DNA of 64,000 bases from Heptranchias perlo (Eukaryota), in assembly GCF_035084215.1 (NCBI RefSeq), contig NC_090355.1:27528001-27592000 (forward strand), in the 5' to 3' direction. The stretch's first letter is position 1. Every line of letters begins with the position of its first letter. The notes below the pieces were generated by a model, which saw only the letters and a program-made list of their open reading frames with translations, had not been told where the DNA came from and made no database searches. The position numbers and the translations under genes are program-made. Shown in pieces: positions 9,310-49,060 of the stretch.

Positions 9310-9906
<597 letters not shown>

Positions 9907-17462: not shown

Positions 17463-19877
17463 CTAACTGCCACCCATCTTTTCTCTTATTTCTAATGGAA
17501 GTGACTCAAAAACATATTGTTCCACCACAAGTCCACCAAGTTTCAGCATAGTGCATTGTCCTATTTCCACTGGGAGCTTTTCTAAGTGGTTTCCTTGAAG
17601 TTCCAACTGAGTTAGTTGGCTGAGCTTTGAGACCTTCCCACTGAGGGATGAGATTAAGTTATTGCTTAGCTTCAGAGTCATGAGCTTGGTACATTTGAAA
17701 AGCTGATCTGGTAGAGTTTCTATTTTATTGTGACGCAAATCCAGAAAATACAGGTTTTTGAGGTTCCCAATATCAGTTGGAATTGTGGAAATATTGTTGT
17801 TGTGTATATCTAAGTAATGCAGTTTCTCAACGCTGAAAAGGACTTTTGGTAAAGTCTCAATCTGGTTGTTTGACAAGTAAAGATACTCAAGCTTCTTGAT
17901 TAAATTAATAGTTGGAGGGATGGATTTGATCATGTTGAACCAGAACTTCAAACAGGACAACTTTTCCAGATATTGCAAGTTGATCATTTCTTCAATTTTG
18001 GTAAGATTGTTACCTTTAAGGTCTAAGACTTGAAGTTTGGACAAGGCATAAATGACATTTGGGATTTTATCCAACTCACAGTTGTGCAGTTCAAGTTGGG
18101 TCAGATTGGCCATTTTCTTTAAGATACTCAGGCTCAAGAGCTTAGTCTTATCATTGTGAATGCAAAGCTTGAGCAGGTGGAATGCAACGTCGAAGATGCT
18201 GGAGGGTATTTTGGAAAGACTCGTTTTTAGGTAAAGGACTTTCAGAGAGCGAAGTCCCTTCATGGATTCCAGTTCCAATGCTTTTCTTTCAATAGCTAGC
18301 TTTCCAGTGAGGTACAGCTCTTTGAGCTGGATCAGTTTGTAGATCCATTCAGGGATTTCATCACGATTCACATATTTAACTCCCACTTTCTTCAGTTGGT
18401 TTCTCAGCCACATCAAAGCTGATGGTGTAACTTCAGTCACACAATGTGAGAGCCAGACTTCTTCCAACTGGTTAAGTTGGATTATTTTGTTGGATATTTT
18501 AACATTACTACAAAGTTCCAGTTTTAAGACCTGTAGCTCAGTAACATCATAGACTGACTCAGGAATTCCTGATAGCATGAAGAGGTACAACTCATACTGG
18601 TCCTTCTTATTTTTTGTTAGATGTTGCTTCACCTTCTCCATAGTCCAATCGTTATTCAAACTTAACAATTTTAACTTTTGTTCACTCACCTCTGAAAGGA
18701 AAACTGCAAGACGTTTGCAATACAGAGCGTCATACTGATCAATCAAATGCAACATGAAAGCAAAGTCATTCGTTACATCAGGGATATCACTGAATTGGTT
18801 TTCTCCTCGTTTCTCAAAGGAGTATTTCTTCAGAGGTTTTTTGAAAACCCAAAGTAGTGTGTGGATACAGAGTATCCAATAGATAATCACTAAACTCAGG
18901 TACAGCAGGGCCATTTTCCCGATGAAACGAGCAGTGCTATAAGTGCAATTGAAAGTCTTGTAAAAAACCAATGATATCGCATTAGGTTCACATAAATTTT
19001 CAAAGTCAACATCATAAACATGGGCTGGAAAGTAACAAATAATAATTATGCAATGTATAGTTTTGAACAATGTTTGGCCAGCATATAATTTATAGATTGT
19101 ATCTTTCTCTTCAACATGGAGTCTGAATTTCCTTACTTTCTCAAACAAAGCTTTGGCTTGCTCTGCGTCCTTCTTGTCCAGGGATGAGCCAGATCCTTGT
19201 GCGTTTGAGTGGATGCGTGTGGGAATTTTAATGGTTGATGTAGTAGTTGTAATACTGATATTGTCAGCGCCATTGTCAGAGGCCTTATTTGGTTTTAGGG
19301 CTTCTTCCAGTTCATTGGCATCTACACAGACTGCTGTAGATAGGGCTTTGGATGTCCATGGTGACTGAAAACAATTCTGAAGGATGTCAAGAAATTGTTG
19401 CAATTTGGAGCTTGTTTTAGGATATGTGAAATAGAAGTTACTGCAGATAATCAGGACAACTGTATGGAATAAAATTAGGTAAGAAAAGAACCTGGTAAAC
19501 CAGGGAATTTGACTATAGCACATTTGATTGATGTAATGGTACTGCCAATTGTATAACTTTGTAACTTTCCCTTGGCTAATAGGAGGAAATGGATCTGGAT
19601 TACTTTGTACTCGTGGATTGGCATTGACATCAGATATTGTTGGAGTATTTTGCAGGGTTGAACTTATCTCATGTGACCTTCCTTTGGTTTTACCAACATT
19701 ATTGATCTGTGGCAAACAGAAAGTCTCATCCATGTAAAGCTGTATGCTGCAACCAAAGATAGCTAGCAACAACATGATAACAGTCAGATAATCCATGAAA
19801 GTATCCCACCAAGGTTTGAAGATCCGGAAGGCAGGTTGCTTACTTTCTAAACTTGAAAAATCAACGACTGAAAACAT
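17463..19877 (-). CDS. LRRC8 family VRAC subunit, divergent LRRC8D-like paralogue 2 (804 aa, single coding exon)
   Basis: Intact ORF: MFSVVDFSSLESKQPAFRIFKPWWD start, four TM segments, LDKKD.EQAKALFEKV, FSDIPDV.NDFAF and a C-terminal LRR array. A splice acceptor (atttcag) lies 2 nt before this ATG, so the 19 extra N-terminal residues of the ORF track are intronic. Confidence 0.93.
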   Translation of the reverse strand: MFSVVDFSSLESKQPAFRIFKPWWDTFMDYLTVIMLLLAIFGCSIQLYMDETFCLPQINNVGKTKGRSHEISSTLQNTPTISDVNANPRVQSNPDPFPPISQGKVTKLYNWQYHYINQMCYSQIPWFTRFFSYLILFHTVVLIICSNFYFTYPKTSSKLQQFLDILQNCFQSPWTSKALSTAVCVDANELEEALKPNKASDNGADNISITTTTSTIKIPTRIHSNAQGSGSSLDKKDAEQAKALFEKVRKFRLHVEEKDTIYKLYAGQTLFKTIHCIIIICYFPAHVYDVDFENLCEPNAISLVFYKTFNCTYSTARFIGKMALLYLSLVIIYWILCIHTLLWVFKKPLKKYSFEKRGENQFSDIPDVTNDFAFMLHLIDQYDALYCKRLAVFLSEVSEQKLKLLSLNNDWTMEKVKQHLTKNKKDQYELYLFMLSGIPESVYDVTELQVLKLELCSNVKISNKIIQLNQLEEVWLSHCVTEVTPSALMWLRNQLKKVGVKYVNRDEIPEWIYKLIQLKELYLTGKLAIERKALELESMKGLRSLKVLYLKTSLSKIPSSIFDVAFHLLKLCIHNDKTKLLSLSILKKMANLTQLELHNCELDKIPNVIYALSKLQVLDLKGNNLTKIEEMINLQYLEKLSCLKFWFNMIKSIPPTINLIKKLEYLYLSNNQIETLPKVLFSVEKLHYLDIHNNNISTIPTDIGNLKNLYFLDLRHNKIETLPDQLFKCTKLMTLKLSNNLISSLSGKVSKLSQLTQLELQGNHLEKLPVEIGQCTMLKLGGLVVEQYVFESLPLEIREKMGGS

Positions 19878-20084
19878 ACCTGAAATAAATGCAAAAATTT
19901 GAAGTGATATTTGAAACATACATTTTGTAGACACTTGAGATATTAGTTCTCTACATTACAACATTTGGGTTTGGGTAATTCCAGGCACGTGCATGCCATA
20001 TAGGGGTACCCACAAAAGGCTGCAAAGTAGAAGAAGGACTGAGGGCATTGTTGACAAAACACTGAAGCTAGGACAGGTCACTTT

Positions 20085-20350
20085 TTTTTATTCATTCATG
20101 GGATGTGGGCATCACTGGCAAGGCCAGCATTTATTGCCCAACCCTAATTGCCCTTGAGAAGGTGGTGGTGAACCGCCTTCTTGAACTATTGCAGTCCCTT
20201 TGGTAAAGGTACTCCCACAGCTGTTAGGTAGGGAGTTCCAGGATTTTGACCCAGCGACGGTGAAGGAATGGCAATATATTTCCATGTCAGGATGGTGTGT
20301 GACTCGGAGGCGGACGTGCAGGTGGTGGTGTTCCCATGCACCTGCTGCCC
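20085..20350 (-). mobile_element. LINE 3' tail fragment (same family as 16360-17228)
   Basis: TTTTTTTATTCATTCATGGGATGTGGGCATCACTGGCAAGGCCAGCATTTATTGCCC. Confidence 0.7.
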
Positions 20351-20354
20351 TTGT

Positions 20355-20830
20355 AAAACTAGAAACATTATACTTACCTCATACAAGGCCTTAATACAGC
20401 CTGATCTAGAACACTGTCCAGTTTGTCCCCCCCCCCCCCCCCCCCAAATGTTGTTGGCCCTAGAGAAGGTCTGGATCACAGCCACAAGAATGAAAACTAG
20501 TCTTAGAACTCTTAGCTATCGGGATAGGCTCTGGGAACTAGGGCTTTTGTCATTGGAGAAACATAGACTTCGAGGTAATATAATTTATTTTCAAAACGAT
20601 GAAGGGAATAGGTTCCGTTTGGGTGGATAGGTAATTTGAGTTTGATAGGAATGGGAGAACTAGGGGCCATCAGTATAAAATACAAAACATGGAATCAAGT
20701 TAGATGCCATGAAGTATTTCTTTTCACAGAGAGTTATTGACCTGTGGAATGGATGACCAAAACATGTAGTAAGTACGGATTCACTGCAATCCTTCAAAGG
20801 GGAGCTGGACGAATTCTTTAGAGTTGAGGA
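20355..20830 (+). mobile_element. Degraded CR1 LINE 3' fragment
   Basis: Translation YKALIQPDLEHC...LSYRDRLWELGLLSLEKHRLRG matches the CR1 ORF2 C-terminus. Confidence 0.75.
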
Positions 20831-21827
20831 CATCTCAAGTTATAGAGGCAGGGACCACAGGCCAAGTGTTACTGTTTTCCACAAGGCCCTCATAGTGCAT
20901 TCTAACATACTGTAAATAGAGTCCCAATAAATGAGGGATAGTTGACCTACCCATAGCCGAGCTGGCCACTAAAAAATGTGCAGGGCACTGTCTAATTTCT
21001 CCGTAGGGAGAAACTGACCTTTGCTCAACACCTACCCACAGTAGTGTAGTTAAGATCCAAAGCACAGCAGTGTTAGTGAATCAGAACTGCATCATACCAG
21101 TCCTTGCCATTGGTGTTGGTGTTGTTGTAACTTATACTTTTAAAATTAATTTTCAAAGGAATTGTAAGGAAAGGATTAATTAATCTGGCTTGAAGTCTCT
21201 TTATGTTGTAGTAATATTAACTTTTAGCTTTTGCCTGTTAAGTGAATTTCTGTTAGAAGGATGAAAATGTACTCAAAAGACAGGTTTGCTTTATTTTGGA
21301 TAATTGTGCGTTTAGCAATGTTCCTGGCTCGGCATCTGTCTTCCTTAGAACTTTTTTACATTAAAAGCACTATATAATGTAAGTTGTTTTTGTTGTGCCC
21401 ACTGTGGAACTGACCTTTACATATTTAAAGGCCCTAGATACAATCCCTGGTCTGTGCTGTGTTAGCTGATCTCAGTGAGGGTAATGGTAAGGATTGGTCT
21501 CAGAGTGCCCGAGCTAACAAGGGGAGAAAGGACCCAGGGTTACGGCTCCTTATGACTTTTCATGATTCTTGCCGAAAGTGCATGTGTAGACATTGGGGTG
21601 AGAACTCGACAGAGTCAGCTGTGATGCCATGAATAGAAGAATGAGATGGATGTAAAAGCACATACACAGTCAGGCTACAGTAAATGATCACACACCAAAC
21701 AGTACAAAGTATTTACTAGCTACCTGTAGAGGTCAACAAATCAGGAATACAGAATGGGAATATTTTTCAAAGGTAGAGACAAATTGGTAGAAAAATAATT
21801 AGGTAGAAAACAAATATTTGTACTTAC

Positions 21828-21990
21828 TCAAGACAGGACTTTGGACTGAACTAAATCTGAATAGATAGCTTTTCCAGTAAACATCAACATTTGTCTTTTA
21901 CAAATCATAAAGATAATAATATGTTAATTTAAGATAGCAAAATTAATAATACATGTTCAAACGGTTTCATAACTTTCGACTGACATCCAC
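21828..21990 (-). other. Candidate non-coding 5' UTR exon of LRRC8D-like gene 2
   Basis: tatttctcag acceptor at 21991 and gtaagta donor at 21827. The coding exon needs an upstream exon because of its acceptor at 19880. Confidence 0.35.
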
Positions 21991-22242
21991 CTGAGAAATA
22001 TTGATAAAGTTCTAACAAATGGTTGGGTTTAGAATTTTTCTATTGATGAAGTTGAATTTGGAATTTTTGATTGTCTTCAATATTCTAATTCTTCTAGATC
22101 CATTTAAACTCCTGACATCGCACAAATTGAAAGGTATGGCCTCTCCTGGAGCTGGGCTGTCATCCATTAAGTACATGAATATCTTGAGTTTAACACATAC
22201 CCGTCATGCTCCAGATATCAGACTTCAAAGTGTCACATTTTG

Positions 22243-22255
22243 TTATATATATAAA
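22243..22255 (-). promoter_or_regulatory. Candidate TATA box for LRRC8D-like gene 2
   Basis: TTTATATATATAA about 45 nt upstream of a gtatgt donor at 22200. Confidence 0.3.
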
Positions 22256-23559
22256 GCAACCTTAAAAAAGAGAAAGAGAGACAGCCATTTCATGATGGGT
22301 TCTTCTGACCTGAAGCAAGAAATTTACAAGCAATTATAATTGCCTTCATGAGTTCACAAGCAGCTACAATCATGTGGATTTGCTTATTTAGACCACTGCT
22401 CCACAGGGAGTTTCTGATCAGTAGCGATCAGTGGTCTCAAAAGGACAGGCTGGATGAACATGATAACATTGCTACACACCCAGACTACCTGGGAACAATG
22501 CCATAGCAGACCTTCTATGACTTTCATAAAATACCACAGGCTTTTAAAGTATTTATTTGAAATTCAACTATTTCTAGCTGAAAAGCAGATATGAGAAAGT
22601 TACGAACTGCCATTTGTTAAACAATTTCAGGCATAAAGATTTGCTGATCAGGCTCCCCAATGGATAAATATCCCATTAGGTGTACTACTGAGCCACTGAA
22701 ACAAGGAAGGCCCCAGGTCTAATCCTGAGCCCTTGTTGCTTTAATCAAATCTAGTCAGGGCAGCACTAGGGGAGGTAATACAATTGAACTCAGTTCCCTG
22801 AGGATGTAGAAGAAAAAAAATTGTTTCAAATCTGAAATATGTGCTTATTTTACCCACTGTGCAGTTAGCTGGATTGGCTCTCCCTCTTGGTTGCCTGGAA
22901 GAGCAGAACAAGAAAACACATTACAATGCTTCTAAAAATACACTCCTTGAAACATAGCTACACATGGCAAGAGATTGCTGTGTGTAACACTGAATTGCTG
23001 CAATGTGGGTCCATGTTTGATGGAATGAATGACAGTAAATAAGGAGATATGCAATAAATAGCAAAAGATACTAGACATGAATTAGCCAGGGGCCTTCAAA
23101 TCCAGCCTTTCTCCCCACCCCTCTATTGACTCCACACCCACAATCCTGATGGCTTTCTCCTCATAAGGAGTCAAGGGTCACAGCTCCTGTAGCCTGCTCC
23201 TACAAGTAGATATGAAAGGGACAGATGTAAAAAAGAGGATTGTGAAATGAATGATAACAAAGTGCCCAGGACAACATCCACCTGAGTGTGTAAAGATACA
23301 GCTGCAAGGAACCTTATGCTGCCATAGTACTTGCTGCTTGATTGACCTAGTTAATGGCCAACATGGAGATGACAGTGATATGTCAACAGGGCCTAGTGAA
23401 CCGAAAGACCATGATTATGCCTATGCATTTACAGAGATCAGGGATTGCCAAAGTGCTCTGGTTTTTCTCTCTTTGATGCTGTTCCAAGTTTATGAGGAGC
23501 AATAACCATGTTGGCAAAACAACCAATTAAGATATTATCACATGCATGCTCATTTACCT

Positions 23560-24100
23560 TGAGAAACTTTGCGTCAGCCAAAAAATGTCTTCCTCTCCCC
23601 CTCCAAGGTTTGGACTAAAGATGAGGCAGCAATGACACACTCTGTCAGCCCCATTCATACTGCTCTGCCTGTACTCTTTAATGCTGGGTGGTCCTCTCCT
23701 CCAAATTGGACCACCTTTCACTTCAGGACTTCCTGTACTCCAGTGCTTGATCACTGAATGACATCACTCTGTGCCCAGACATTTTTGGTTGCTTCTTTAA
23801 GAGCTGCTGGGGCCAGGAATCCTGCCCTAGAACCTCAACATGTCCCCAGCACCTCACACCAAGATCTTTTTGTTGCTCAACCTCTTTCAGTATTGTTCCC
23901 TGCAAATGATACGTGTATTCTGTGTTGTTCCTATCAGCACGCATAACACTACATTTATCTAAATTAAATGCCATTTGCCAATGTGTAGCCCACTCCCCAA
24001 GCACATCTAAATCTTTTTGATTGCACTCCTCTACCCACTACTCATTTCCCCTCCTAGATTGGTATCATCTGCAAGTTTGACCACTATGCCTTGAATTTCT
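23560..24100 (-). mobile_element. Degraded CR1 LINE RT fragment
   Basis: Translation LGEWATHWQMAFNLDKCSVM...QQKDLGV, with an upstream KLADD remnant. Confidence 0.75.
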
Positions 24101-24680
24101 GATACTATGAGCAGCTTGAGTTTTAAAAGCTGTTGATTGTAAAAGGAAGAGAAGACTGAGGGGAATAAAAAGTTCCACAGTTTTTAGGACCTGAGAAAGG
24201 ATGAGTTAGAATTGGTCCAATAAGTCTAGATTTGATCACCATGCGCATGCAGGGAGGAGGAAGCGAGTGCAGAATGGCGTACCTGGAGCTTAGGAGAAAA
24301 AAAAGAATATTCACAGGGGCAATGACCACAGTAACATCAGTAAAATGGAGGAGGACAAGAAAACTGGGTTGGAGAGAGGAAATAATCAGGTGAAGAAACT
24401 TTTTCTTATATCTTGAAAAGGCCAGGATCACACATCAAGAATGGCAATTGAGCAGACTACTGGAGGACTGCTGGTGTCTTTCACATGTGCCTCAGCACAA
24501 GTCATCATTTTGAAGAGAGAAAATTTGTTGAATGGTACTTTTCAGTTTGGTAAAACAAAAAGAAAATGTGCGCCCACCATCGATGCAATCATGTCAATCT
24601 TTATATTTCTGATGCATGATTGGCTGAAAAGGTGACATCGGTGTCTGTTCTTTACCCAATCGGAGGCCATATTTTGCAAA

Positions 24681-24887
24681 ACATAAAATGCTGCAGATGC
24701 TGGAAATCTGAGACAAAAAATGAATATGCAGGTAACACTCAGCAGGTCGGGCAACATCTGTAAAGAAAGGAAAAGTTTCAGGTTTGTTCAGGTTTATCAC
24801 TTCATCAGAAGTGCTCTGACGAAGGATTATTCCTTCCTTTACAAATGCTGGCTGACCTGCTGAGTGTTTCCAGCATTTTTGGTTTTC
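24681..24887. mobile_element. Penelope-derived short element with internal inverted structure
   Basis: AAATGCTGCAGATGCTGGAAATCTGA...ACACTCAGCAGGTC and inverted GACCTGCTGAGTGTTTCCAGCATTTT. 15-nt flanking direct repeat GCCA(T/C)ATTTTGCAAA at 24666-24680 and 24888-24902. Confidence 0.7.
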
Positions 24888-25212
24888 GCCACATTTTGCA
24901 AAGCGGATTCTCACTTCCAATATGGACTGCAAGACTCCTGAGTTGGAAGAAAACAGGTAGTCAGCGTATTTAAATTTAAAAATATTTTGGGGAAAAACAT
25001 AACATAAAAATTAGAGTAGGGCTTGTTAGAAATAGAATAAAGTAAAATTGAGCCCATAGGAGTAAAGAGAAGACAGTAAACTGAAATAAAGTGTTTAATT
25101 TTTATAAAAAATTACTCAATATTTTTATTCTACTCCTGACATCTGGTTAGCGTTTGTTCCAACGTTACAGTGCTTGAGTTGAATTTTTTTTGAAGCCAAC
25201 CAACGAGCTGCA

Positions 25213-25928
25213 TCACCATATCTGCTCCATCATCAAGTCTGCCTATTTCCACCTCCGTAGCATCACCTGTCTCTGCCCCTGCCTCAGCTCATCCGCTGCT
25301 GAAACCTGCATCCATGCCTTTGTTACCCACAGACTTGACTATTCCAATGCTCTCCTGGCCGGCCTCCTACCTTCCACCCTCCATAAACTTGAGCTGATCC
25401 AAAACTCTGCCGCCCGTATCCTGACTTCCACCAAGTCCTGTTCACCCATTACCTCTGTGCTCACTGACCTACATTGGCTCCCAGTCCGGCAATGCCTCGA
25501 TTTTAAAATTCTCATCCTTGTTTTTAAATTCCTCCATGGCTTCGCCCCTCCCTATCTCTGTAACCTCCTCCAGCCCTACAATCCTCCAAGATCTCTGCGC
25601 TCCTCCAATTCTCGCCTCTTGTGCATCCCCGATTTTAATTGCCTCACCATTGGCGGCCATGCCTTCAGCTGCCGAGGTCCTAAGCTCTGGAATTCCCTCC
25701 CTAAACCTCTCTGACTCTCTACCTCTCTCTCCTCCTATAAGATGCTCCTTGGCCAAGTTTTTGGTCACTTGTCCTAATAGTTCCTTATGTGGCTCGGTGT
25801 CAAATTTTGTTTGATAATGCTCCTGTGCAGCACCTTTGGATGTTTTACTATGTTAAAGGCACTTAAACAAATACAATAACCCTAATAAAATAAGAAAAGA
25901 CTAAATATATATGCAAGTTGTTGTTGTT
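25213..25928 (+). mobile_element. L2-clade LINE 3' fragment
   Basis: IHAFVTHRLDYSNALLAGL...LHWLPVRQ...FK...LWNSLP is the L2 ORF2 C-terminus. Ends ATGCAAGTTGTTGTTGTT. Confidence 0.88.
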
Positions 25929-26242
25929 CATCTGCCCCAAGTTTATGAGTGCATTATTACTGCCAAAGACCAACAGCTGTAGTACTGTTCAAGCTAGGGA
26001 GTACCTTATTTATAATGCCCTTTAAGAGTGAGGTTAGAACCTGAGTCCAGAGTTATACTGCAACTGCAGCATCACTGCAAAGCAGATATCACTTTGCAGT
26101 AACACTAAACATCTTAGTGTTAATATAAAAAATCTGAAATGTGTGGTTAAAGATGGCTGATTATATACAAATTATATCTCAAAACAAGACAAAATATTTA
26201 TTCTTTTCTTATTTTATTAGGGTTATTGTATTTGTTTAAGTG
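25860..26242. repeat. 49-bp inverted repeat pair (25860-25908 and 26194-26242, one mismatch)
   Basis: CACTTAAACAAATACAATAACCCTAATAAAATAAGAAAAGA(C)TAAATAT against the reverse complement of 26194-26242. Confidence 0.9.
26197..26218 (-). terminator. Candidate tandem poly(A) signals of LRRC8D-like gene 1
   Basis: AATAAA on the minus strand at 26213-26218 and 26197-26202, about 400 nt after the stop codon. Confidence 0.45.
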
Positions 26243-26620: not shown

Positions 26621-29131
26621 TTATACAAGGTGGTCCAGTTCAGGAAGTGACATCTTGTTGGGAATTATTAGTCTGATCTCTGGAGGAGCCTCAAGGTTAG
26701 CAGTCATATTAATTCTGATTTCTAAAGGAAGTGTCTCAAACAAATATTCATCCAATACCAGACCACTTTGTTTCAGTTTGCTACATTGTGCTACCTCTAT
26801 TGGAAGTTCTTCCAACTTATTTCCTTTGAGTTCTAGTTTTGAAAGTAGGCTACACTGCTGGATCTTCCCACTAAGGGATGAGATTAAGTTATTGTTTAGC
26901 TTCAGAGTCTTGAGCTTCTTACAGAGGAACAGCTCATCTGGTAGAGTTTCCAATTTATTGGAACTCAAATCTAGGAACTTCAGGTTTTTGAGGAATCTAA
27001 TGGCTGGAGGAATCTCAGTTAGACGATTATTGCTTATGTCTAAATGATGCAGCTTCTGAATAGTAAACAAAGTATTTGGCAATGTTTCAATCTGATTGTT
27101 TGATGCATTAAAACGTTCAAGGTTGCCGATGAAATTAATGGTATCTGGAATGGATTGGATTCTGTTAAAACTGAGATTGAAGGAGGATAGTCGGCGCAGA
27201 CGTAGCAAGCCTTCAATTTCGTCAATCGTGGTAAGCTCGTTGCCCTGGAGGTTCAACTCTTGCAGATTGGAGAGGCTAAAAATGCCCTGTGGAATCTTCT
27301 CCAGATCACAGCTTTGTAAATCAAGACGGGCCAAATTGACCATACTTCCCAAATTGTGGAGCATAGCGAGCTTGTTTTTATTATTGAGAATAGACAGCTC
27401 AACCAAATGGGGTGCAACGTACAGCACATTGAAAGGGATTTTCGAGAGGTTACTGTTGATATGAAGGACTTTCAAATAACGAAGTTCTTTTAAGAATTCC
27501 AGTTCCAACACTGATTTTTCACCATTGATGTTCCCAATCAGGTAGAGCTCTCTCAACCTGGTCAGTTTACTGATCCATTCGGGCACTTCATCGTGATTTG
27601 AAAATGTGACCGTCAGTGAGTTCAACTGGCTGCCTAAGAAGAATAAAGCGGCTGGTTTAATGGTGACCATACAGTTTACGATCGAGAGTTCTAGCAGATG
27701 GACAAGTTGGGTTACCTTGGTGTTTATGTTAATATCACTGCAAAGTTCCATCTTTAAGACCTGTATCTCAGTAACATCGTAGACCGCTTCAGGAATTCCT
27801 GATAATAGCAAAAGGTGCAGTTCTAACTGGTCCTTCTGATTTCTGATCAACTGTTGCCTCACCTTATCCGCAGTCCAGTCGCTATTCAAACTTAACATCT
27901 TCAACTTTTTCTCACTTGCCTCGGACAGGAAGATACAAAAACGTTTGCAGTACAAGGGGTCGTACTGATCGATCAGATGTAACAAGAAAGCAAAATCATT
28001 CTTTACGTTGGGAATGTCGCTGAACAGGCTTTCTCGTTTTTCGAAAGAGTATTGCTTCAGTGGTTTGCGGAAGACCCATATGATGGTGTGGAAGCAAAGC
28101 AATACATAGATAGCCACTAAAGCCAGGTAGAGCAGAAGCAGCCTCCTGAGCAAAAAGGCAACACTGAAAGTGCAAATAAAAACCCCATAACCAATCACCG
28201 ACTCTGTGCCGGGTCGACATATAATGTCAAATGCGACCGCTTCAACGTATAACGCAAAATAACTTAAAATCGTTATACACTGCAGGGTTTTTAAAATGAG
28301 TTGCCCAACGTAGAGTTTATATATCGTGTCCTCTTTCTCCACATGGACCCTGAATTTCCTTACTTTCTCAAACAAAGCTTTGGCTCGCTCTCCATCCTTC
28401 TTGTCCAGTAGCTGGTAATGTCTTTGTATAACTGGATTATTCCGTGTGATGGGTTTAGTCAATGTATCGCTGATACCGGCGACAATCGGCTTAAGTGTGG
28501 CGGCTATGCTTTTGTGCCTTTCTGGTATTTTGACGTTCATTTTACTGCTGTTCTCAGTGACTGCCAGAGAGAGGACATCGGTTGTCCAAGGTGACTCGAA
28601 ACACTTCTCTAAGATGAAGATCAAATGTTCTATTTTTGAGCTTGTTTTGGGATACTTGAACCAGAAGTTGCTACAAATCATTAACGCGACTGTATGGAGT
28701 AAAATAAAATAGCAGAAATATTTTGGAAACCAAGGTACTGCATAGAAGTAGCATGCCTGGTTGACATAGCGGTACTGCTGATGGTCCAAGTTTGCCCTCC
28801 CGTCACCTACTGCATATACAGCATCGAGGTGTGAGAATCTAATGAAGTCTGGATGAATTAATCTACCACGAATGTCAGTTACATTAGGATCCGCAATGGC
28901 GTGTCTCATGGTATAGTTGGCTTTAGTATGTATCCGGCTGTTATCAACAAATTCATCCAGAATTGGTAAACAAACAGTCTTATCCTTGTATATCTGTATG
29001 GTGCCTCCAAACACAGCGATCATCAACATGGTTATAGCCAAATAATCCATGAAAGCGTCCCACCAGGGTTTGAAGATCCGGAAGGATGGCGGGGCTTTGC
29101 TCATTGACGAAATATCTTCGAAGGACAACAT
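26621..29131 (-). CDS. LRRC8 family VRAC subunit, divergent LRRC8D-like paralogue 1 (836 aa, single coding exon)
   Basis: Intact ORF: MLSFEDISSMSKAPPSFRIFKPWWDAFMDYL, CSNFWFKYPKTSSK, LDKKDGERAKALFEKVRKFR, DQYDPLY and an LRR array. A splice acceptor (tcttctgtatttag) lies 2 nt before this ATG. Confidence 0.93.
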   Translation of the reverse strand: MLSFEDISSMSKAPPSFRIFKPWWDAFMDYLAITMLMIAVFGGTIQIYKDKTVCLPILDEFVDNSRIHTKANYTMRHAIADPNVTDIRGRLIHPDFIRFSHLDAVYAVGDGRANLDHQQYRYVNQACYFYAVPWFPKYFCYFILLHTVALMICSNFWFKYPKTSSKIEHLIFILEKCFESPWTTDVLSLAVTENSSKMNVKIPERHKSIAATLKPIVAGISDTLTKPITRNNPVIQRHYQLLDKKDGERAKALFEKVRKFRVHVEKEDTIYKLYVGQLILKTLQCITILSYFALYVEAVAFDIICRPGTESVIGYGVFICTFSVAFLLRRLLLLYLALVAIYVLLCFHTIIWVFRKPLKQYSFEKRESLFSDIPNVKNDFAFLLHLIDQYDPLYCKRFCIFLSEASEKKLKMLSLNSDWTADKVRQQLIRNQKDQLELHLLLLSGIPEAVYDVTEIQVLKMELCSDININTKVTQLVHLLELSIVNCMVTIKPAALFFLGSQLNSLTVTFSNHDEVPEWISKLTRLRELYLIGNINGEKSVLELEFLKELRYLKVLHINSNLSKIPFNVLYVAPHLVELSILNNKNKLAMLHNLGSMVNLARLDLQSCDLEKIPQGIFSLSNLQELNLQGNELTTIDEIEGLLRLRRLSSFNLSFNRIQSIPDTINFIGNLERFNASNNQIETLPNTLFTIQKLHHLDISNNRLTEIPPAIRFLKNLKFLDLSSNKLETLPDELFLCKKLKTLKLNNNLISSLSGKIQQCSLLSKLELKGNKLEELPIEVAQCSKLKQSGLVLDEYLFETLPLEIRINMTANLEAPPEIRLIIPNKMSLPELDHLV

Positions 29132-34237: not shown

Positions 34238-35685
34238 TAATAGGTACGGCACAGGAGGAGGCCATTCAGCCCATCATGCCTGTGCTGGCTCTTTGAAAGA
34301 GCTATCCTATTAGTCCCATTCCCCTGCTTTTTCCCCATAGCCCTGTAAATCTTTCCCCATAGCCCTGTAAATCTTTCCCCCACAAATATTTATCTAATTT
34401 CCTTTTGAAAGTTACTGTTGAATCTGCTTCCACCACCCCTTCAGGCAGTGCATTCCAGATCATTACAACTTGCTGTGTAAAAAAATGTTTCCTCATGTCA
34501 CCCCTGGCTCTTCTGCTGATCATCTTAAATCTGTGTCCTCTGGTTATCGATCCTTCTGCCACTGGAAACAGTTTCTCCTTACTCACTCTTTCAAAACCGT
34601 TTATGATCTTGAACACTTCTATCAAATCTCTCCTTAACCTTCTCTGTTCTAAGGCAAACAACCCCAGCTTCTCCAGTCTCTCCACATAACTGAAATTCCT
34701 CATCCCTGGTACAATTCTAGTAAATCTCTTCTGCATCCTCTCTAGGGCCTTGACATCCTTCCTAAAGTGTGGAGTCCAGAATTGAACACAATACTCCAGC
34801 TGAAGCCTAACCAGTGTTTTATAAAGGTTTAGCATAACTTCCTTGCTTCTGTACTCTATGCCTGCCTCTATTAATAAAGCCAAGGATCCCATATGGTTAT
34901 CCAACAGCCTTCTCAACTGCCACCTTCAAAGATTTGTGTATATGCACCCCCCAGGTCTCTTATTCCTACGCCCCCATTAAAATTGTACCATTTAGTTTAT
35001 ATTGCCTCTCCTCGTTCTTCCTACCAAAATGCATCACTTCACACTTCTCTGTGTTAAATTTCATCTGCCATGTGTCTGCCTATTTCACCAGTCTGTTTAC
35101 ATCCGCCTGAAGTCCGTTGCTATCCTCCACATTGTTTACTACATTTACAAGTTTCATGTCATCTGCAAACTTTGAAATTATACTGTCTATACCCAAGTCC
35201 AGGTCATTAATATATATTAAGAAGAGCAGTGGTCCTAATACTAACTCATGGGGAACACCACTGTAAACTTCCCTCCAGTCTAAAAAACAACCGTTCACCA
35301 CTACTCTCTGCTTTCTGTCCCCTAGCCAATTTTGTATCCACACAACCATTGTCCCTTAAATCCAATGGGCTTTAATTTTGCAAACAAGTTTATTATGTGA
35401 TTCTTTATCAAATGTCTTTTGAAACTCCATATACACATCAACTGCACTACTCATATCAACCCTCTCTGTTACTTCATCAAAGAACTCAATCAGGTTAGTC
35501 AAACACGATTTTTCTTTAACAAATCCATGCTGACTTTCATTTATTAGCCCATACCTTTCCAAGTGCCAATTAATTTTGTCCCAGATTATTGTCTCTAAAA
35601 GTTTCCCCACCACCAATGTTAGGCTGACTGGCCTGTAATTGCCGGGTTTACCCCTCTCCCCTTTTTTGCAATCCTCCAGTCCTCC
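34238..35685 (-). mobile_element. Older CR1 LINE fragment (RT and 3' UTR), frameshifted
   Basis: ORF pieces QHGFVKEKSCLTNLIEFF, LVLGPLLFLIYINDL..KFADD, YKTLVRLQLEYCVQFW, TRGH. A 22-nt tandem duplication sits near 34333-34376. Confidence 0.92.
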
Positions 35686-38780: not shown

Positions 38781-38839
38781 CTAGGATTTTGACCTAGGCC
38801 CGCAACCTCTACCAAGAAAGACAAGTGCACCAAACCATG

Positions 38840-41070: not shown

Positions 41071-41425
41071 TTATTTAAAGAGGGAATTATTTGTAAAATG
41101 GTGTCTAGAATCTCAGCCTATTAAATGTAGATCGATGATTTCTTTTTCCAGGTATTTTCGGCTGTAAAGTGGGGTGGGGAAGGAGGAGCAGGGGAGTCAT
41201 CTTAATCACGTTACCTGATACGTGAGTATATGTGGCAGACAAGCAGTAACACCAGCAAATAAGATATTAGAAGTCAGAGCAGCACCAATGTGCAGTAATA
41301 TGTATCAAACACTAAGGTAAATGGTGAGTTTGAATACACTAGAGGGAGAATCATGAGATTAGAGAGATTTCAGGAAAACAAAAACAAAAATCACATTTAC
41401 ATCTAATATTATACAATTATATAAT
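40675..41425 (+). repeat. Diverged direct duplication of about 150 bp (about 40675-40830 and 41265-41425)
   Basis: TAGAAGTC.GAGCAGC...AATGTGCAGTAAT.TGTATCAAA.ACT.AGGTAAATGGTG...ATCATGAGAT...ATTTACAT.TAAT occurs twice. Confidence 0.8.
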
Positions 41426-41660
41426 TGACACTTATATAAACAACTATATGTAAATCTATGTATATTTGTAATATTTATATCTATTCTGATATTACGTATT
41501 TTGTACATTCTTGATGGTTATTCATTCTATTTCAATGGCGACGGACAGGTGACTAACACAAATGTATTTGTAAGGAGGGTAGGTGGGGGGGGCACAGAAA
41601 TTTATCTTTTCAATTATTCTTAATTTTAAATTTATGAATAACACACAGAAGACCCACTCA

Positions 41661-41666
41661 TTTATT
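41661..41666 (-). terminator. Candidate distal poly(A) signal of LRRC8A
   Basis: AATAAA on the minus strand followed by GT-rich TGAGTGGGTCTTCTGTGTGT. Would imply a 3' UTR of about 3.5 kb. Confidence 0.3.
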
Positions 41667-44600
41667 TAAAAAAATATAAACTCAATGCACAATTTCTTAA
41701 GATTTTGGCCTGGAAGCCTATTAGCCGTCACAAAGTTATTTCAGTGTTAAGTAATAACCCTTTTATTGATCATCTTGTTTTCCATATTCAATATATAAAG
41801 GTCACTGGCTGCTTGTTTTTAAGCATATGCTTCTACATGTAGGAATGTCACAATAAGATTTTTTTTCTGTCTCTTTATATCTGTACAATGCCCATTTGGT
41901 TTATTCCAACAGTAGAGGTGATCCGTTGATTGTGACTTTTGAATGCTGAACAACTTTAGGCACCCAATTGTGATGGGAAATCAGTTTTGCCATTATAGAA
42001 ACTTAAGTCTCTTGTTATAAGAGAGAGACAGACAGACAGACAGAGACAAACAGAAAGGTAGAAAGAAAGAGGAAAGGCAGTGTTGAAGCACATGCAAGTA
42101 ATCAATCACTTCAGTTACCAAAGCAGCATCACGGTCCGAGTAAAACACACACAATAATTACAATACTGCAGAATATGAATAATCTTGTAATTTATTCCTA
42201 GCAATTCAACTTATGTAGGTAAAAATGCCAGATTTTACCATTCTGACGAGGCAAATTCAAAAAAGATGGGTTTATTATTGAGATATCTCACGACATCCCA
42301 ACTGAAATGCTGACCATTGGAAAACACTGCAGCTTTAAAATAGGGCTGTTAGACATGAAATTAACAACATTTCTAATTACATTTTAAAGAGGAATAAAAT
42401 TAAATGTAGGTTTTCAACATGGAGACTGTGAATAAAGCCTATTTCACAGCATTAGATAATACTTTCTACTGCTTTGATTAAATGTGTAAGCAAACCAGCG
42501 TATTTACAGTCACTTACACATTTAATAAGTCAAAGAGTCAAAATAACAAACCTGAGAAAAGTGTTGCTACTAGTTTAGGGCATATTCACCCCTGAGGACT
42601 GCAGAAGTCCTAGCATCAATTACAATTGAAAAATAATGAAATCTTATACAGAATCCAACTTATGTATGAAGCCAGCCAGTCCCATTAAAAGCATACTGCA
42701 ATAACTATTTCATTCTTAGTGAGTAATTGGGGATCATTGCAACATTTCCAGTAATTTGAGCATTAACAAAAATTGAAGCTTAGCACATACATTTGCTCTG
42801 GAAAACATTAGAAGAGGTTCACAACAAGCAACAATGACCCTGGAAGAATACCCTTTCTCCCCCCTTCCCCCAAAATGGGGGATGTTAGTGCTGGGGGACA
42901 GAACACTTTATATTTCTGGGGCACCCAGTGTCAGTATCAAGCTCTCTTAGGTTAGGCATAGCTTGATGCACAGTAAAGATCCCTCTACTCTGCCCCATCA
43001 ATGCACTTCAGCTCCACCCTCAGTAGAACACTGCTACTGCAACAGTTGTGAATTTTTTTCCAAACCATGCCTATCTGTGTGACATTGCCAATTAAAAGCA
43101 GTTTTGTATTGTAAGCCCATGCCCACTAGGAACTGCCCAAGTAGCTAGCAGACAAAAGACACTTTGGTCCCACCCGTCTGGGCTGGATTTAAACCCAGGT
43201 ACCATAGGTGACAGGCTTGTGTCTCACCCAAGGCCACCCAGCTCTTCAAATACCATTTTGTCCCAAATTATGGTAGACTAAAACACTTAAAATCCTGTGG
43301 ATTATCAATGGTTGAAGTACCAACCAGCATAGTACTGACTAGTCACAATGAATTGGAAAGAAGAAAAAAGATAACTTGTGAATGCTTGCAGCAGAAACAG
43401 AAAATGCTAGAATAGCACATATGGCCAATCAGCATTTAAAAGACGAAGAGAGGTTTATGTGGGTCCCACCCAAACTCTAACCTATCTTTTTCTCCCAGGT
43501 GCTGACTGGCCTACTGCATATTTCCTTAAGAAAAAAAATGGTTCTTTGTTCCCTATATGCCGTTGCTGTCTCTCCTTGCTTCTCAATACCTCTTCCACCC
43601 TCTTCTCACTATTATTTTCATCTTTTGTTGAACTTTTTCAAATTGCCTATTTGTTCTTTCTCTCATTTCATTGTTCTGTTTCAGGTGGGTTGAGGGCAGA
43701 GAGTAGGGAGGTGCAAGCTATACAGCAAGAAAACCAACAAAACACTGGTACGATCAGGTGTCTGATCTAAACAAATATATAATAGCAAGACCAGGACATT
43801 TAAAACACAGAAGCTGGTTTAGAAGAGACAACATAACTTTAGCCTAGGATGAAATGCTGGTAAGAAGCCAGATTAGCAGAGGCAATTCCCATGAGTAAAC
43901 AGCCACAGTGCAGCATGCAGGTTCATTATCAACAAGACTAAATTAGAATAGTTAATCACTGGAAAGTGTACAGAACATGATACACGAAAGGTACAGTACA
44001 CTATGATGAGGGGAATATTTTATACAGAAAAGTATTTTTAAATGAATATTTAAGTGAATTTTTCCAAACCAATTCCCCACACTCCCCAAGTGCTAGGGTG
44101 CAATGCTCTGGATACCGTGTCCAAATACCCATTCTTTTTATGTGAACCTAGACAGTGACAACAGGATATATGATAACACAGGCATCTTAACCAAACCCGA
44201 TTCCGTCTTTAACCGAGGTTCACACGGTTGTATTTCCAACTGGGGTCACTGGACAGTAACCGGGAGCATGTCTATACTTAATCTACATTACTACAGAGTT
44301 ATTTTTGAAGAACAGTTGCAGATGTAATGGAAAGTAGGTTTTGTTCTTAGGAACTACATTTTTTAAAATGAAACATGTGCCCCGAACAACTTAATTAAAT
44401 TGAAACATTAAAAAAAAACTATCCTTTAGTCTTTAACAGTTTTATAAAAAACCTATTCCATCGATCCCCAAATCTCAATACCCACTCCTCTCAGTTTACT
44501 GCCTACATCTGTAAAATAGGCCTCCATGGAAATTCCCCTCCCTCTTCTTAACTGTTTTGACAACATGACTCAGGAGTATTGTGTCGTGTTTTGCTCTATT

Positions 44601-45162
44601 TGAAGGGGCATGGTGGAAAGGATGTGAAATAGTGAGTTCAGCTCAATCATCGTGCTAAACAAAAAATCAGCTTGATGAAAAACTAGAATTTTTTTGGCTT
44701 AAGACGGTCAAAAGAGCATCATTTCAAAAAAATATCACCGGTTGTTTCATGCAAGGAATGTATTGCCTGCTCAGGGCAGATACAGTACCGGTCCCTAATA
44801 CAGTATCAGCTAAATAAATAACAAGGCATTGGCAATATCAGTCTGTTGACATGTCATGGCTATGAATGTATTAGCTTTTTTGTGATTCATTAAAGCAGAA
44901 GTATTAATTGTGTTTAGATATTTAAACCAGCTATTTCTTTAAGTGATTCTTTTAGTTACTGGCAGGCATTCCATTCTGTCTATCGCTCTGTTCCCCGTGG
45001 AGAGCACCAGTCCCAGGAACAGAAAATCAGACACTTTTCAGTTATACAAACAACAGAACAGGAGATCTGCTCATCATTCCAGCACAGCAGGCTACAAAAT
45101 CTGCTGAAAACTTGGCAAGATAGATTTTTTTTTTCCTTTTTCCCTTACAATATAAATAAAAT

Positions 45163-45438
45163 TCAGGCTTGTTCCTTGTCTGCTCGCCACAGTTGCTCCT
45201 TGACCTCAGATGGGAGTGTATTGAAGAGATCATCCTCTACTACGAGACCACTTCGCTTGAGTAGCCGGCATTCTCCGAGCTCCACAGGGAGGCACTCTAG
45301 TCTGTTTCCACGAAGCTCCAGCTGTGTCAAGCTCGTCAGCTCGCCGACTCGTGACGGCAGTGATAGCAGGCAGTTATTCCCTAGGTTTAGGGTCCGGAGC
45401 TTACGACATTGGAAGAGTTCAGGTGGCAGGGTTTCAAT
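45163..45438 (-). CDS. LRRC8A: LRRC8A (SWELL1) last coding exon (IETLPPELFQCRKL...LWRADKEQA)
   Basis: ttgcag acceptor at 45439, 91 codons plus stop. The C-terminus LWRADKEQA is diagnostic of LRRC8A. Confidence 0.97.
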   Translation of the reverse strand: METLPPELFQCRKLRTLNLGNNCLLSLPSRVGELTSLTQLELRGNRLECLPVELGECRLLKRSGLVVEDDLFNTLPSEVKEQLWRADKEQA

Positions 45439-46888
45439 CTGCAAGGTGGGAGGGGGGCAAAGAAGGGGAACAAAACGTCAAATACTTTAATTGATGTACT
45501 TGTTGGACCGAAGTAGCATTCATGAAGCATGTTAAAAAAAATACTTGTTTATTCAGAGAATATCAAAGATTTTTTGTAAACTCTCCAAGTTTTATCTTAT
45601 ATTTTATCTCATATTATACAATATTAGAAATTTGGAGGAAGTAATTTTCACATAGGCTGTAATACAGAAGACACACAATTAAACTTCAAAAGGATTAAAA
45701 AGCATTATTAAGGGCCTTCCAGCAAATCACTTGCAAATTAGTCTACTTTTGTCTTCACGAACTGTATGCATGCACAGATACATGTGCACAAAATGAATAC
45801 AGTGGAAAGTAGTATTTTTATTAGGTCCATTTGGACAGCACACATCTCCACAACCTCAAGCACTGCTTCACTGCAAGCTCATCATTGGTGGGATTTGCAC
45901 TGAGTAACTTGGGAGATTTGTTTACAAAAATAAAAAGCTGAGAGAAATATATTTTGGAAGTAGTTACTTCTAAGCCTCATTTTACTTTTAGAAAGATTAG
46001 TGGGTAGTTTCGGCCTTTATTTTATCTTTCTACTGGCAAGAGTGGAATAGGGCTAGCATGTACCTGTTTTCTAAACCTCCCACAATAACTCGCTTTCTGG
46101 GAAGGTTTAATGTGATATATCGAAACATTAATTAAATCAGTTTGAGAATCAAAAATAATGTAAGCAGTAAAAAAAAATGTTTTAAATCGACTTTAAACTC
46201 TGCATGGGCAAAAACATGTCACAGCTGCATATTAAAAAGGCTTCTACCTTTGTAAAAGTAAAGGCAAAGCCTAACTGATGTGATTACTGGCGTAACTGCT
46301 ACTTGCAATAATCTAGCAAAGATCTGGCAGCAGCTGCTTCAAGGAATGAGCAACTGTCATGCTCAACAGCTGAGGAGAGGCCTTAAAAGCCTCAACGTTC
46401 TGCAATTAGAGCAAATTTGGACTAATTCAGTTCAGGCTTGCAAAAAAAAGGTAATTGGGGAAAAAAACAGGGAAACTGAAAGGTTAAAATGTTAATCAAA
46501 AGCAAAATACTGCGGACCATATAAAGTACTTATGTCAGGTGTCCCTATAGGTACAAAACTAGAGCTCAGGGCTCCAGAGATCAAATCCCAGTCATTACAC
46601 AACAGGTTGTACTCGGGCTTCCCTTATAGTTTAACAGTCTCAACCTAGTGGAGGGAGGGAATACATAGCATACATCTTTATGAGGTAAGCAAACAGTAAT
46701 ATTAATGAAGTCCACAGGGCCTCTATCCGTGCTGTATAACTCTATGACTAGATGTTTAGATGTTAGACTGTCCTACCCTGCTGATTAAAAGATAGCATGA
46801 ATGATGGGCAGGAGAAGGCAAAATAGATGTAAATGTAGAATGAATACTGCACATATATTAATCATTATAGTCGAATGCGCACACTCAC

Positions 46889-49060
46889 CCTGTTTGCAGT
46901 AACAGCGAAATACTGCAAATTCTGAAGGAATCCAATGTCTTGTGGTATGGAGGTTAGGTTATTGTGACTCAAATCTAAGTACCGCAACTTGCGGCAATAG
47001 AAGAGCTGAGCGGGAATCTTTTCAATTTTGTTCCGGTTCAGGTAGAGCCTTTCCAAGTTGGTCAAAGTGCCAATCTGAATGGGGATATAGGCAATGTGGT
47101 TATACCACAGCTTAAGGCAGACTAGGCGCCGTAGGTGCTGGAAGCTGATGATTTCCTCGATTGTCTTCAAGTTGTTGTCCTTGAGATCGATCTCCTGCAA
47201 ATTATGGAGACTAAAGATTGAGTGTGGGATTCGTTCCAAGTCACAACGAATCAACTCCAATTCTGTCAGATTAACCATCTTCTTTAGACTATTGAGGACC
47301 ATAAGCTTGGTGCCCTCATTGTTGATAGACAATTTCTGCAGATGGACTCCAACATCCGTGACTACCTGTGGCAACTTAGTTAGGTTGCTCTTCAACCTTA
47401 AAACTTTGAGGCATTTGAGTTCCCGCAAGCCATCAATCACAATGTAGCGATTGTTCTCTGCACTCAGATTCCCAGTTAGGTGAAGCTCTTCAAGGTTCTT
47501 CAAGCTGTAGATCCACAGAGGAATCTCTTTGATGTCTGTAAACTTAATATGTAGTGACTTCAGGTGTTCTCGTAAGAAGGCAAGAGCTGGTGCCTCAATC
47601 TTTGCTGGTGTGTGATACAACCAGAGTTCTTTGAGGTTGGTAAGTTGGGCAATGATCGGAGGAATGGTGACATCCAGGATCATCTCCAGTTTGAGCACTT
47701 CTAGCTCAGTCAGGTCAAAGATGGTGTCTGGGATTCCACTCAGCATGAAAAGGTGGAGTTCCAGTTTGTCCTGAGAGTTTTTCATGATCCTCTGCCGGAG
47801 TTTCTCCAGGGTCCATTCATTATTCAGATTGAGCTGGCGTAATTTGTTCTCACTGACCTCAGATAGAAAGACAGCAAAACGCTTAGAGTACAACGGATCG
47901 TACTGATCAATCAGGTGCAACATGAAAGCAAAATCATTCTTGACATCGGGAATGTCACTGTAGCTGCTCTCTTCCCGAATGGACTCGAATGAATACTTTT
48001 TCAGAGAACGCCGTAGCATCCACCAGAGTGTGTACATGCAGATGAGTCCATAGACAATCACTAAACTAATGTAAAAGGATGCAAGGATCTTGAACAGTGT
48101 AGCTAATGGATGAGCGCACTGATACACACGGTATCCTGTGAGGTTCTGAATGTCCACTATACAGGACACATCAAATTTTATATCGTCAACATAATAAAGT
48201 GAATAACTAATAATAAGAGCAAATTTGATTACTTTGATAATAGTCTGTCTCATGTAGAGTTGGTAAACTATATCCCCTTCTTCTACATGGGTGCGGAATT
48301 TCTTTACTTTTTCAAACAGGGCTTTAGCTTGCTCTCCCTCCTTCTTATCCAGTACACCTGTTTCCGAGCGATCAACTATTCCCTGTTCGATGCGAGATTT
48401 TGTTCTTTGCAGCATAGGTACGCTGGCCTCCACGTCCTCACTCACTGAGGAGGATTTCTTCACCATTGAGCCATTCATTTTAACAAATGACTGTTTTGGG
48501 TCGCTCTCCTCCACCACAGTTTCAGATAGCGCCCGTGTTGTCCATGGTGAGTCAAAACATTTCAGAAGGATGGATACAAAGTGTTCCAGCTTTGAGCTGG
48601 TCCGAGGATATTTGAACCAGAAATTGCTACACACTAAGAACACCAGTGTGTGCAGAAGTACAAGGTATGGGAAGTATTTTGCAAACCAGTGAAGTTTATT
48701 CTCATAGCATACTGCATCCACATAGTTGTACTGGTGCCGGTCCAAGTCATACTGGATACCCGTGGGTTCACTGGAAAATGGGGGAAGGACTGAAGATGGT
48801 GGGAGGGATGTATTTGGGTATGCAGTGGTTGGGGGCTCTGTGGGTTGTGGCTGTACAGGTTCAACACACGTATTGTTGATAACCCACTTGCAGGGTAAAC
48901 AAATCATTTTGTCCTGTGTGACTTGCAATGTGCCACCAAACACTGCTATCATAAGCATTACGATGGAGATGTAGTCCGTAAACACGTCCCACCATGGCTT
49001 CAAGATGCGGTAAGCAGGCTGGGTGTCAGCAAAATATCGTAGTTCTGTTACCGGAATCAT
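46889..49060 (-). CDS. LRRC8A: LRRC8A (SWELL1) main coding exon, obligatory VRAC subunit
   Basis: MIPVTELRYFADTQPAYRILKPWWDVFTDYIS...YDLDRHQYNYVDAVCYE...VTANR then gtgagt. 724 codons, acceptor 7 nt before the ATG, 815 aa in total with the last exon. Confidence 0.98.

Follow-up and report, generated by a model that had tools for sequence, protein, structure and literature searches.

In the review sections used here, LRRC8 is presented as a five-member family. The best solved match of the two genes described below, which we call Y1 and Y2 (together Y), is LRRC8D (about 820 bits as compared to 730 for LRRC8A), a VRAC accessory subunit with available structures (6M04, 9DX7, and 9T5M). Like LRRC8D, the Y genes have a single coding exon, and their products carry four extracellular cysteines, an uncharged filter residue, and shared D-class columns. 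However, Y shares only 46-48% identity with the LRRC8D of the same genome, forms a separate clade, and is located on a different chromosome.

A second relative is an LRRC8E-linked D-like clade, here termed F, the ray-finned members of which probably correspond to the proposed LRRC8F group. F resembles Y in belonging to the D class, in having no coding intron, and in being labeled “LRRC8D-like” or left nameless in databases. In contrast to Y, it is the sister of D, is located behind LRRC8E, and has coelacanth, lungfish, amphibian, and ray-finned members. LRRC8A (SWELL1), the neighbor of Y, shares its orientation and family architecture; unlike LRRC8A, to which it is 45-46% identical, Y lacks R103, a second EL1 cysteine pair, and a 3′ intron, and its intracellular loop is divergent.

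The chromosomal background of the family comes from Lamb 2021 (PMC8040251), which, in the part used here, assigns the LRRC8A region of paralogon 9 to quadruplicate A, the LRRC8C region to C, and the LRRC8E region to D; the paralogon topology is ((A,B),(C,D)). Its table treats LRRC8A/C/E as one trio and covers bony vertebrates only.

Two intact D-class LRRC8 genes lie between LRRC8A and PHYHD1

The window is the whole 64,000-nucleotide stretch of Heptranchias perlo DNA that was analyzed. A sequence-only reading of it had reported two extra uninterrupted LRRC8 frames (836 and 804 amino acids), co-oriented and placed between LRRC8A and PHYHD1, and this arrangement was confirmed. All four genes lie on the minus strand. 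The first coding exon of LRRC8A (46889..49060, 724 codons) ends with a GT donor after VTANR and is 89% identical to the LRRC8A protein P0317; R103 and T48 are present, with glutamine at the K98 position. The last coding exon (45163..45438), found with tblastn, has an AG acceptor and a TGA stop. Y1 (26621..29131; 836 amino acids) and Y2 (17463..19877; 804 amino acids) are each encoded by a single intact coding exon. For PHYHD1 (552..9906, ends approximate), we placed five coding exons, at about 9900, 8450, and 5250, at 2519-2385, and at about 660; the first exons were not located. The exon at 2519-2385 matched human PHYHD1 with an E value of 6.8e-20 versus 7.5e-4 for PHYH.

The pannexin-like four-helix membrane domain PF12534 was detected above the cut-off in both Y1 (372 bits) and Y2 (355 bits), over model positions 1-346, and a C-terminal leucine-rich repeat (LRR) domain was evident from Pfam LRR matches and from full-length alignment to LRRC8D. 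Because the longest stop-free frames in 10 shuffled versions of the window reached 116-216 amino acids, and both proteins passed the PF12534 cut-off, a chance origin of the two frames is excluded. With an identity of only 52%, Y1 and Y2 do not represent an assembly duplication. A search of the 10 kb below and the 30 kb above the window yielded no additional LRRC8 sequence.

The start codons of both genes are preceded by a pyrimidine tract and an AG two bases upstream, a likely splice acceptor (29135-29134 in Y1 and 19881-19880 in Y2, both on the minus strand); the same configuration occurs in D, F, C, E, and X (X being a further class introduced below). An alternative in-frame ATG of Y2 at 19919, which would yield 818 amino acids, sits in the pyrimidine tract of the likely acceptor.

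Sharks, rays, and a chimaera carry the Y genes

The sequence-only reading had taken the pair to be peculiar to this lineage; instead, it is common to sharks, rays, and a chimaera. We found Y orthologues, auto-labeled “LRRC8D-like” or without a name in the databases, in 18 other named species from these groups, and most of the proteins are full length. Both Y1 and Y2 were present in 13 of the 18, and the little skate has both. Their accessions are consecutive in the chimaera and in two bamboo sharks, and a gene model of an electric ray fuses Y1 and then Y2. The tandem duplication likely predates the split of chimaeras and sharks.

Among the ranked matches listed for bony vertebrates, no Y orthologue was found. 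The top-scoring bony-vertebrate matches to the Y profile, P0013 and P0015, turned out to be over-long gene models with best matches to D and C rather than Y. The pair was likely lost in bony vertebrates. The cyclostome LRRC8 proteins that we recovered were of the A/B and X classes only, with no D-class member that could date the split of Y.

The Y genes evolve fast. In the small sample of listed differences from a related species, 6 of 10 changed codons in the LRR stretch of Y2 and 10 of 13 in the first extracellular loop of Y1 were nonsynonymous, suggesting that the constraint on Y is moderate. Such changes would favor the view that Y1 and Y2 are decaying relics or an assembly artifact. This view is effectively refuted by the mostly full-length orthologues in 18 other species including the chimaera, the invariant cysteines, and the coding pieces listed from contigs of a related organism, 10/10 of which align without gaps. 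One listed contig piece crosses the predicted Y1 acceptor unspliced. Since no join to an upstream exon is listed and the RNA status of the pieces is a guess, they are silent on the expression of Y.

Ten LRRC8 genes fall into four classes on three contigs

The genome contains ten LRRC8 genes arranged on three contigs as B-C-D-X1 (C9), E-F...X2 (C40), and A-Y1-Y2 (C34). All have intact frames, with GT/AG sites where introns are expected (the last exon of B being left out). The canonical B-C-D cluster, expected elsewhere in the genome by the sequence-only reading, was found on C9, where D lies behind B and C, and Y is not part of it. Apart from the Y pair, there are three extra genes, F, X1, and X2. 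Intron positions follow the classes, with a 3′ intron in A/B, an intron after codon 46 in C/E/X, and none in D/F/Y. PKN-type HR1 exons were present on C9, C34, and C40 (8 of 9 matches), and AKAP95-family genes were found immediately behind X1 and X2 (4/4 matches). An aminotransferase search in which 9 of 39 candidates were scored did not find KYAT1/KYAT3, and a Nup188 search gave no match, neither of which implies absence.

Trees place Y outside LRRC8D and F

In a tree of 36 rows (LG+C20 PMSF), SH-aLRT support was 100 for Y, 98 for D+F, and 99 for Y+D+F. Separate analyses of the two protein halves, membrane and LRR (33 rows each), gave UFBoot values of 100 for Y, 99-100 for D+F, and 98 for Y+D+F; D alone received 98-99. 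The overall branching is (Y,(D,F)), in unrooted trees of vertebrate sequences. The intronless D class (D, F, and Y) forms one side of a supported branch. The separate Y clade bears out the earlier proposal of an ancient, tandem-duplicated D-class paralogue outside the A-E set. The D-type motifs cited in its favor stood only in part: D-class membership held, while some of the motifs, such as a single cysteine in CLP and NQMCY, are shared with C and E and are therefore not diagnostic. Y1 and Y2 match five and four of seven D+F-diagnostic columns, and 0 and 1 of 13 A/B-diagnostic ones, respectively.

Alternative placements were compared by AU tests under two models (values given as LG / C20), using constrained trees from fast IQ-TREE searches under LG+F+G4, which may be slightly suboptimal. 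A Y+A clade, with Y as a tandem copy of A, was rejected (5e-52 / 1e-51), as were a Y+AB grouping and membership of Y in X or in C/E. Y as a shark-specific copy of D (4e-7 / 2e-4) and Y as part of the ray-finned D-like group (0.04 / 0.002) were also rejected, so that Y is neither nested in canonical LRRC8D nor a member of that extra group, in line with the sequence-only reading. The placements of Y as sister of D alone (0.10 / 0.044) or of F alone (0.115 / 0.048) were borderline.

The latter two placements, which stand under LG and are just rejected under C20, would fit a more recent origin of Y, by copying of D or F in stem jawed or stem cartilaginous fishes and a move to the side of LRRC8A, with fast evolution mimicking age. 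The long Y branches point in the same direction: shark-chimaera identity is 61% and 64% for Y1 and Y2, whereas D reaches 87% and F 81%, and such fast evolution can draw Y toward the base of its class. Nevertheless, we regard a later copy as unlikely. A copy of shark D was rejected, D+F is recovered at 99-100 in both protein halves, and the acceptor kept before the start codons argues against a retrocopy. Moreover, a later copy would have reached the sole paralogon free of D-class genes by coincidence, and there a site downstream of the A/B-class gene and co-oriented with it.

The chromosomal context agrees with an older origin

Y is located on a chromosome paralogous to those of D and F, with the topology expected from the first vertebrate genome doubling (1R) followed by the second (2R). 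The paralogon topology ((A,B),(C,D)) predicts (Y,(D,F)), and the trios PKN3/PKN2/PKN1 and FNBP1/FNBP1L/TRIP10, in the part of Lamb 2021 used here, come from the same three chromosomal regions and show the same branching order as Y/D/F. Because (Y,(D,F)) agrees with the way in which the three paralogons branch in the published scheme, Y is likely a 1R ohnologue of LRRC8D, later duplicated in tandem. In contrast to the published LRRC8A/C/E trio, the shark set suggests four classes: B is the partner of A, E that of C, and D and F those of Y.

Three copies, B-C-D-X1, E-F...X2, and A-Y, may survive of an ancestral tandem cluster that held the four classes (A/B, C/E, D/F/Y, and X). The first genome doubling would have left a copy of the LRRC8D ancestor beside LRRC8A, and a later tandem duplication would have produced Y1 and Y2. 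The pair had been described as inserted beside LRRC8A; its position is better read as ancestral, within a cluster copied by genome doubling. If so, ten genes in four old classes would recast LRRC8 as one four-gene cluster that was genome-doubled and then pruned.

Y could instead be a fifth ancestral class, a pre-1R tandem paralogue that survived only beside LRRC8A and whose likeness to D is ancestral. The unrooted tree and the distance of Y from all other paralogues of its genome (39-48% identity, the most distant group) favor such a class, and the X class exemplifies how old classes are overlooked. We find it improbable, as it requires extra losses, of Y from two paralogons and of the D class from the third, and the topology seen already equals the ohnologue prediction. 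Against the ohnologue reading stands a coelacanth F-like protein whose recorded contig has the same length as that of coelacanth B and D, an arrangement not anticipated by a simple three-chromosome model.

Taken with their distribution, we consider it probable that the Y genes are conserved cartilaginous-fish D-class genes, derived from a 1R copy beside LRRC8A, duplicated in tandem, and lost in bony vertebrates, whose products are predicted partners of LRRC8A with an altered pore.

Pore residues of Y and its predicted role

The extracellular cysteines C54, C113, C295, and C310 are kept in 20/20 Y rows, and R103 is absent from all 20. Unlike LRRC8D, all Y proteins have Tyr48, and the filter phenylalanine is not fixed: at the position of F143 of D, Y1 has H/F/I/Y and Y2 has N/I/V/Y, with Phe or Tyr in 6/20 Y rows versus 6/6 D rows. 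The sequence-only reading had put forward a specialized osmolyte-channel system, for which Y1 and Y2 are candidates. Most Y rows also differ from LRRC8D by a short deletion after FEK. The outer filter of Y2 is remodeled (Y102, N103, W104, and E51 in LRRC8A numbering); the aromatic residue at 102 together with W104 distinguishes it from LRRC8D, and in 11/11 Y2 rows D102 is replaced by an aromatic residue, H104 by W, and K51 by E, D, or N. Y1 has its own conserved C-terminal extension of about 25 amino acids.

We predict an accessory role for Y1 and Y2, as partners of LRRC8A. LRRC8A would contribute trafficking and the R103 ring, while Y subunits would replace outer-filter arginines with uncharged residues, making the filter wider or neutral, as in D. 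Combined with LRRC8A, the Y subunits are predicted to give swelling-activated channels whose pore chemistry is altered. In the published data used here, LRRC8A(T48Y):C resembled the wild type; as Tyr is tolerated at position 48 of LRRC8A, lipid gating would be kept in Y.

With the same origin, Y1 or Y2 might play another role, as a channel of its own, as a modulator with little transport (like LRRC8B), or as an intracellular channel. The filter changes of Y2 and the conserved tail of Y1 favor this, as does LRRC8A/B, which, in the review section used here, lacks significant transport activity yet alters selectivity. We assign such a role a low probability, because mammalian non-A subunits, in the sources as far as used here, require LRRC8A for trafficking, and the loop of Y is not A-like (34-39% identity to the intracellular loop of A versus 41-49% for the other non-A paralogues). 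The predicted structure of Y2 was confident over most of the LRR, and its membrane half was weakly modeled (mean pLDDT 63.8). A complex prediction for the LRRC8A and Y2 membrane domains, made without alignments, scored 0.02 and was uninformative.

At the two pore sites that have been studied best, the R103 filter and the T48 lipid gate, Y1 and Y2 represent natural variation, which makes them ready tools for selectivity work. It seems rather unlikely that cartilaginous fishes use a VRAC system of ten subunits where neutral-filter channels built from Y1 and Y2, both lost in bony vertebrates, release osmolytes of zwitterionic and cationic type (TMAO, betaine, and taurine, for example); if true, this would explain the high cation permeability of skate hepatocyte VRAC. 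In the review section used here, the values relative to Cl- for this channel are about 0.2 for Na+ and Cs+ and 0.55 for choline, as compared to 0.02-0.04 in most studies. Y constitutes a previously undescribed subfamily within a known channel, and it offers a testable lead to this permeability: the little skate has both genes, which makes the unusual property accessible to subunit co-expression.

Two additional LRRC8 genes lie between LRRC8A and PHYHD1

The minus strand of the window carries three LRRC8 genes: LRRC8A (exons 49060-46889 and 45438-45163), Y1 (29131-26621; 836 aa), and Y2 (19877-17463; 804 aa), with five PHYHD1 exons beyond them on the same strand. Y1 and Y2 each form one unbroken reading frame with a likely splice acceptor 2 bases ahead of the ATG; the longest frame from 10 shuffles of the window was 216 aa at most. 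Y1 ends in an extension of ~25 aa (26624-26700, minus strand), which is kept in 9/9 orthologues shown, is Val-terminated in eight, and is possibly a sorting or binding motif. In LRRC8A (46889-49060), the K98 inactivation position is occupied by Gln.

We searched for relatives using Y1 as a query and a profile of 18 Y proteins (8,000 candidates scored; best 120 of 971 matches listed). In these searches, cartilaginous-fish proteins scored at least 1,250 bits, compared to at most 1,077 for canonical LRRC8D. Two exceptions to this gap come from over-long gene models that match D and C best and were rejected as Y genes. The LRRC8 membrane domain was present in 239 of the 367 collected proteins; the 42 closest to Y1 or Y2 comprised the window's own, those of named cartilaginous fishes, and Logan proteins clustering with skates. 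Y genes were found in 18 further named species, 13 of which have both. Y1 and Y2 have consecutive accessions in Callorhinchus, Chiloscyllium punctatum, and Hemiscyllium, and a single gene model in Narcine fuses Y1 to Y2; both observations indicate that these species share the tandem arrangement. A scan of 1.84 billion representatives added no bony-vertebrate Y gene (21 LRRC8-like matches checked by name). Among the top-ranked matches listed, Y is missing from bony vertebrates, which falls short of proving its loss there.

The Y orthologues are intact from chimaera to rays, which argues for function, and coding contig pieces of a related organism were gap-free in 10/10 listed. Among the few differences listed, non-synonymous changes made up 6/10 changed codons in the Y2 LRR and 10/13 in the first extracellular loop of Y1, so that constraint on Y is moderate or regional.

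Y groups with D and F in a ten-gene family

Two concordant searches found ten LRRC8 genes in this genome, for which F, X, and Y are our own labels. On contig C9, B, C, and D are joined by X1 as the fourth gene; C34 carries A, Y1, and Y2; and C40 carries E, the D-like gene F directly behind it (C40:19144306-19146816), and X2 at 8 Mb distance. Intron positions define three groups, A/B, C/E/X, and D/F/Y. PKN-type HR1 exons occur on all three contigs (8/9 matches), and AKAP95-family genes directly follow X1 (both at C9:15479621-15494546) and X2 (both at C40:11109438-11115513; 4/4 matches). The identities of PKN, ZNF326, AKAP8, and SPOUT1 are presumed from Pfam family and human gene order. PKN-type and SPOUT1-type genes lie at C34:34.38-34.55 Mb, ~7 Mb from LRRC8A, and are likewise apart from it in gar; the table of Lamb 2021 (PMC8040251) puts human PKN3 no more than 0.2 Mb from LRRC8A.

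X1 and X2 are intact members of a fourth LRRC8 class, whose relatives from frog, newts, and lamprey are annotated as A-like or C-like. The filter of X1 resembles that of LRRC8A (D100, R103). Shark LRRC8E (C40:19124768 onward) has Arg at the filter position, compared to Leu96 in human E.

An unrooted tree of 36 rows, built without an invertebrate outgroup, spanned all classes; fused models were omitted, as were the majority of partial proteins and of the numerous canonical D matches. It supported Y (100), D+F (98), and Y+D+F (99), apart from A/B, C/E, and X. FastTree on 65 and 72 rows was in agreement, and the membrane and LRR halves each reproduced these groupings once three long-branch rows were removed. 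AU tests rejected grouping Y with shark D, A, A+B, X, C+E, or perch/gar D-like genes, while Y with all D or with all F was borderline. By FastTree, the F clade contains coelacanth, lungfish, axolotl, frog, lizard, and ray-finned D-like proteins; the frog gene shares a contig with E, the lizard member is a short model, and the ray-finned members evolve fast.

Lamb 2021 (PMC8040251) places the LRRC8A, LRRC8C, and LRRC8E regions in paralogon 9 as its quadruplicates A, C, and D, branching as ((A,B),(C,D)). With a D-class gene (D, F, or Y) retained on all three regions, the expected branching is (Y,(D,F)), the topology of our trees. We infer a four-gene LRRC8 cluster that predates the first vertebrate genome duplication (1R), and Y as the 1R ohnologue of D and F; divergence of 1R paralogons was completed ~527 Ma, according to the hagfish genome paper (PMC10972751). 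An X-class gene in lamprey and an A/B-class gene in hagfish are consistent with old LRRC8 classes. Three observations count against the 1R origin: Y is fast-evolving (shark-chimaera identity 61-64%, compared to 87% for D), the cyclostome proteins recovered included no D-class gene, and the contig of coelacanth F is recorded as equally long as that of coelacanth B and D. The paralogon 9 supplement of Lamb 2021 treats LRRC8A/C/E as one ohnologue trio; in our trees, the partner of A is B and that of C is E.

Database labels for Y proteins are an automatic "LRRC8D-like". A full-text literature search, with most subscription papers outside its reach, found neither a description of Y1/Y2 nor the name LRRC8F, reportedly proposed for a sixth group in ray-finned fish. 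Relevant passages of PMC6994961, PMC6028502, PMC5064130, and PMC3928549 mention only elephant-shark LRRC8A, zebrafish paralogues, or family origin. Y1 and Y2 form a genuine subfamily, apparently undescribed, of a well-known channel; its evolutionary explanation is clear, and it offers a physiological lead that can be tested.

Pore residues suggest accessory subunits

In published work, LRRC8A is the obligatory subunit of the swelling-activated channel VRAC. The outer filter is formed by R103 in A, by L105 in C, and by F143/144 in D; uncharged and cationic organics are preferred by D, and the lipid gate is lined by T48. We counted residues (LRRC8A numbering) in a 46-row alignment containing 20 Y rows. 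The four extracellular cysteines are present in all 20, and position 103 is never Arg. Position 48 is Tyr in 19/19 Y rows having a residue there but in 0/25 other rows; LRRC8A(T48Y):C was wild-type-like (bioRxiv 10.1101/2022.07.31.502239). Y2 has W104 and an aromatic 102 and has lost K51 (11/11 rows). Given the kept cysteines, missing Arg103, tolerated Tyr48, and Y2 filter changes, Y1 and Y2 are predicted to be accessory subunits that would depend on LRRC8A and keep lipid gating, with selectivity expected to be altered more in Y2 than in Y1.

The link to taurine proposed in the sequence-only reading is weakened, as just 6/20 Y rows have Phe or Tyr at the filter. A better lead is the cation permeability of skate hepatocyte VRAC, reported as near 0.2 for Na+ and Cs+ and 0.55 for choline, relative to Cl- (PMC6363415). 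Y1, Y2, and F all occur in little skate, and this permeability could equally be due to F, X1, or X2 instead of Y.

Repeats in the window

A 39-bp tandem repeat of 19 copies (6056-6799) lies inside a PHYHD1 intron; the 264-aa Cys-rich plus-strand ORF it yields is likely spurious. LINE-type reverse-transcriptase fragments (13898-15859 and 34245-35663) have copies at other genome loci. Near-perfect palindromic short repeats (217-296, 11898-12015, and 13072-13247), also common to other loci, are probably small non-autonomous DNA elements.
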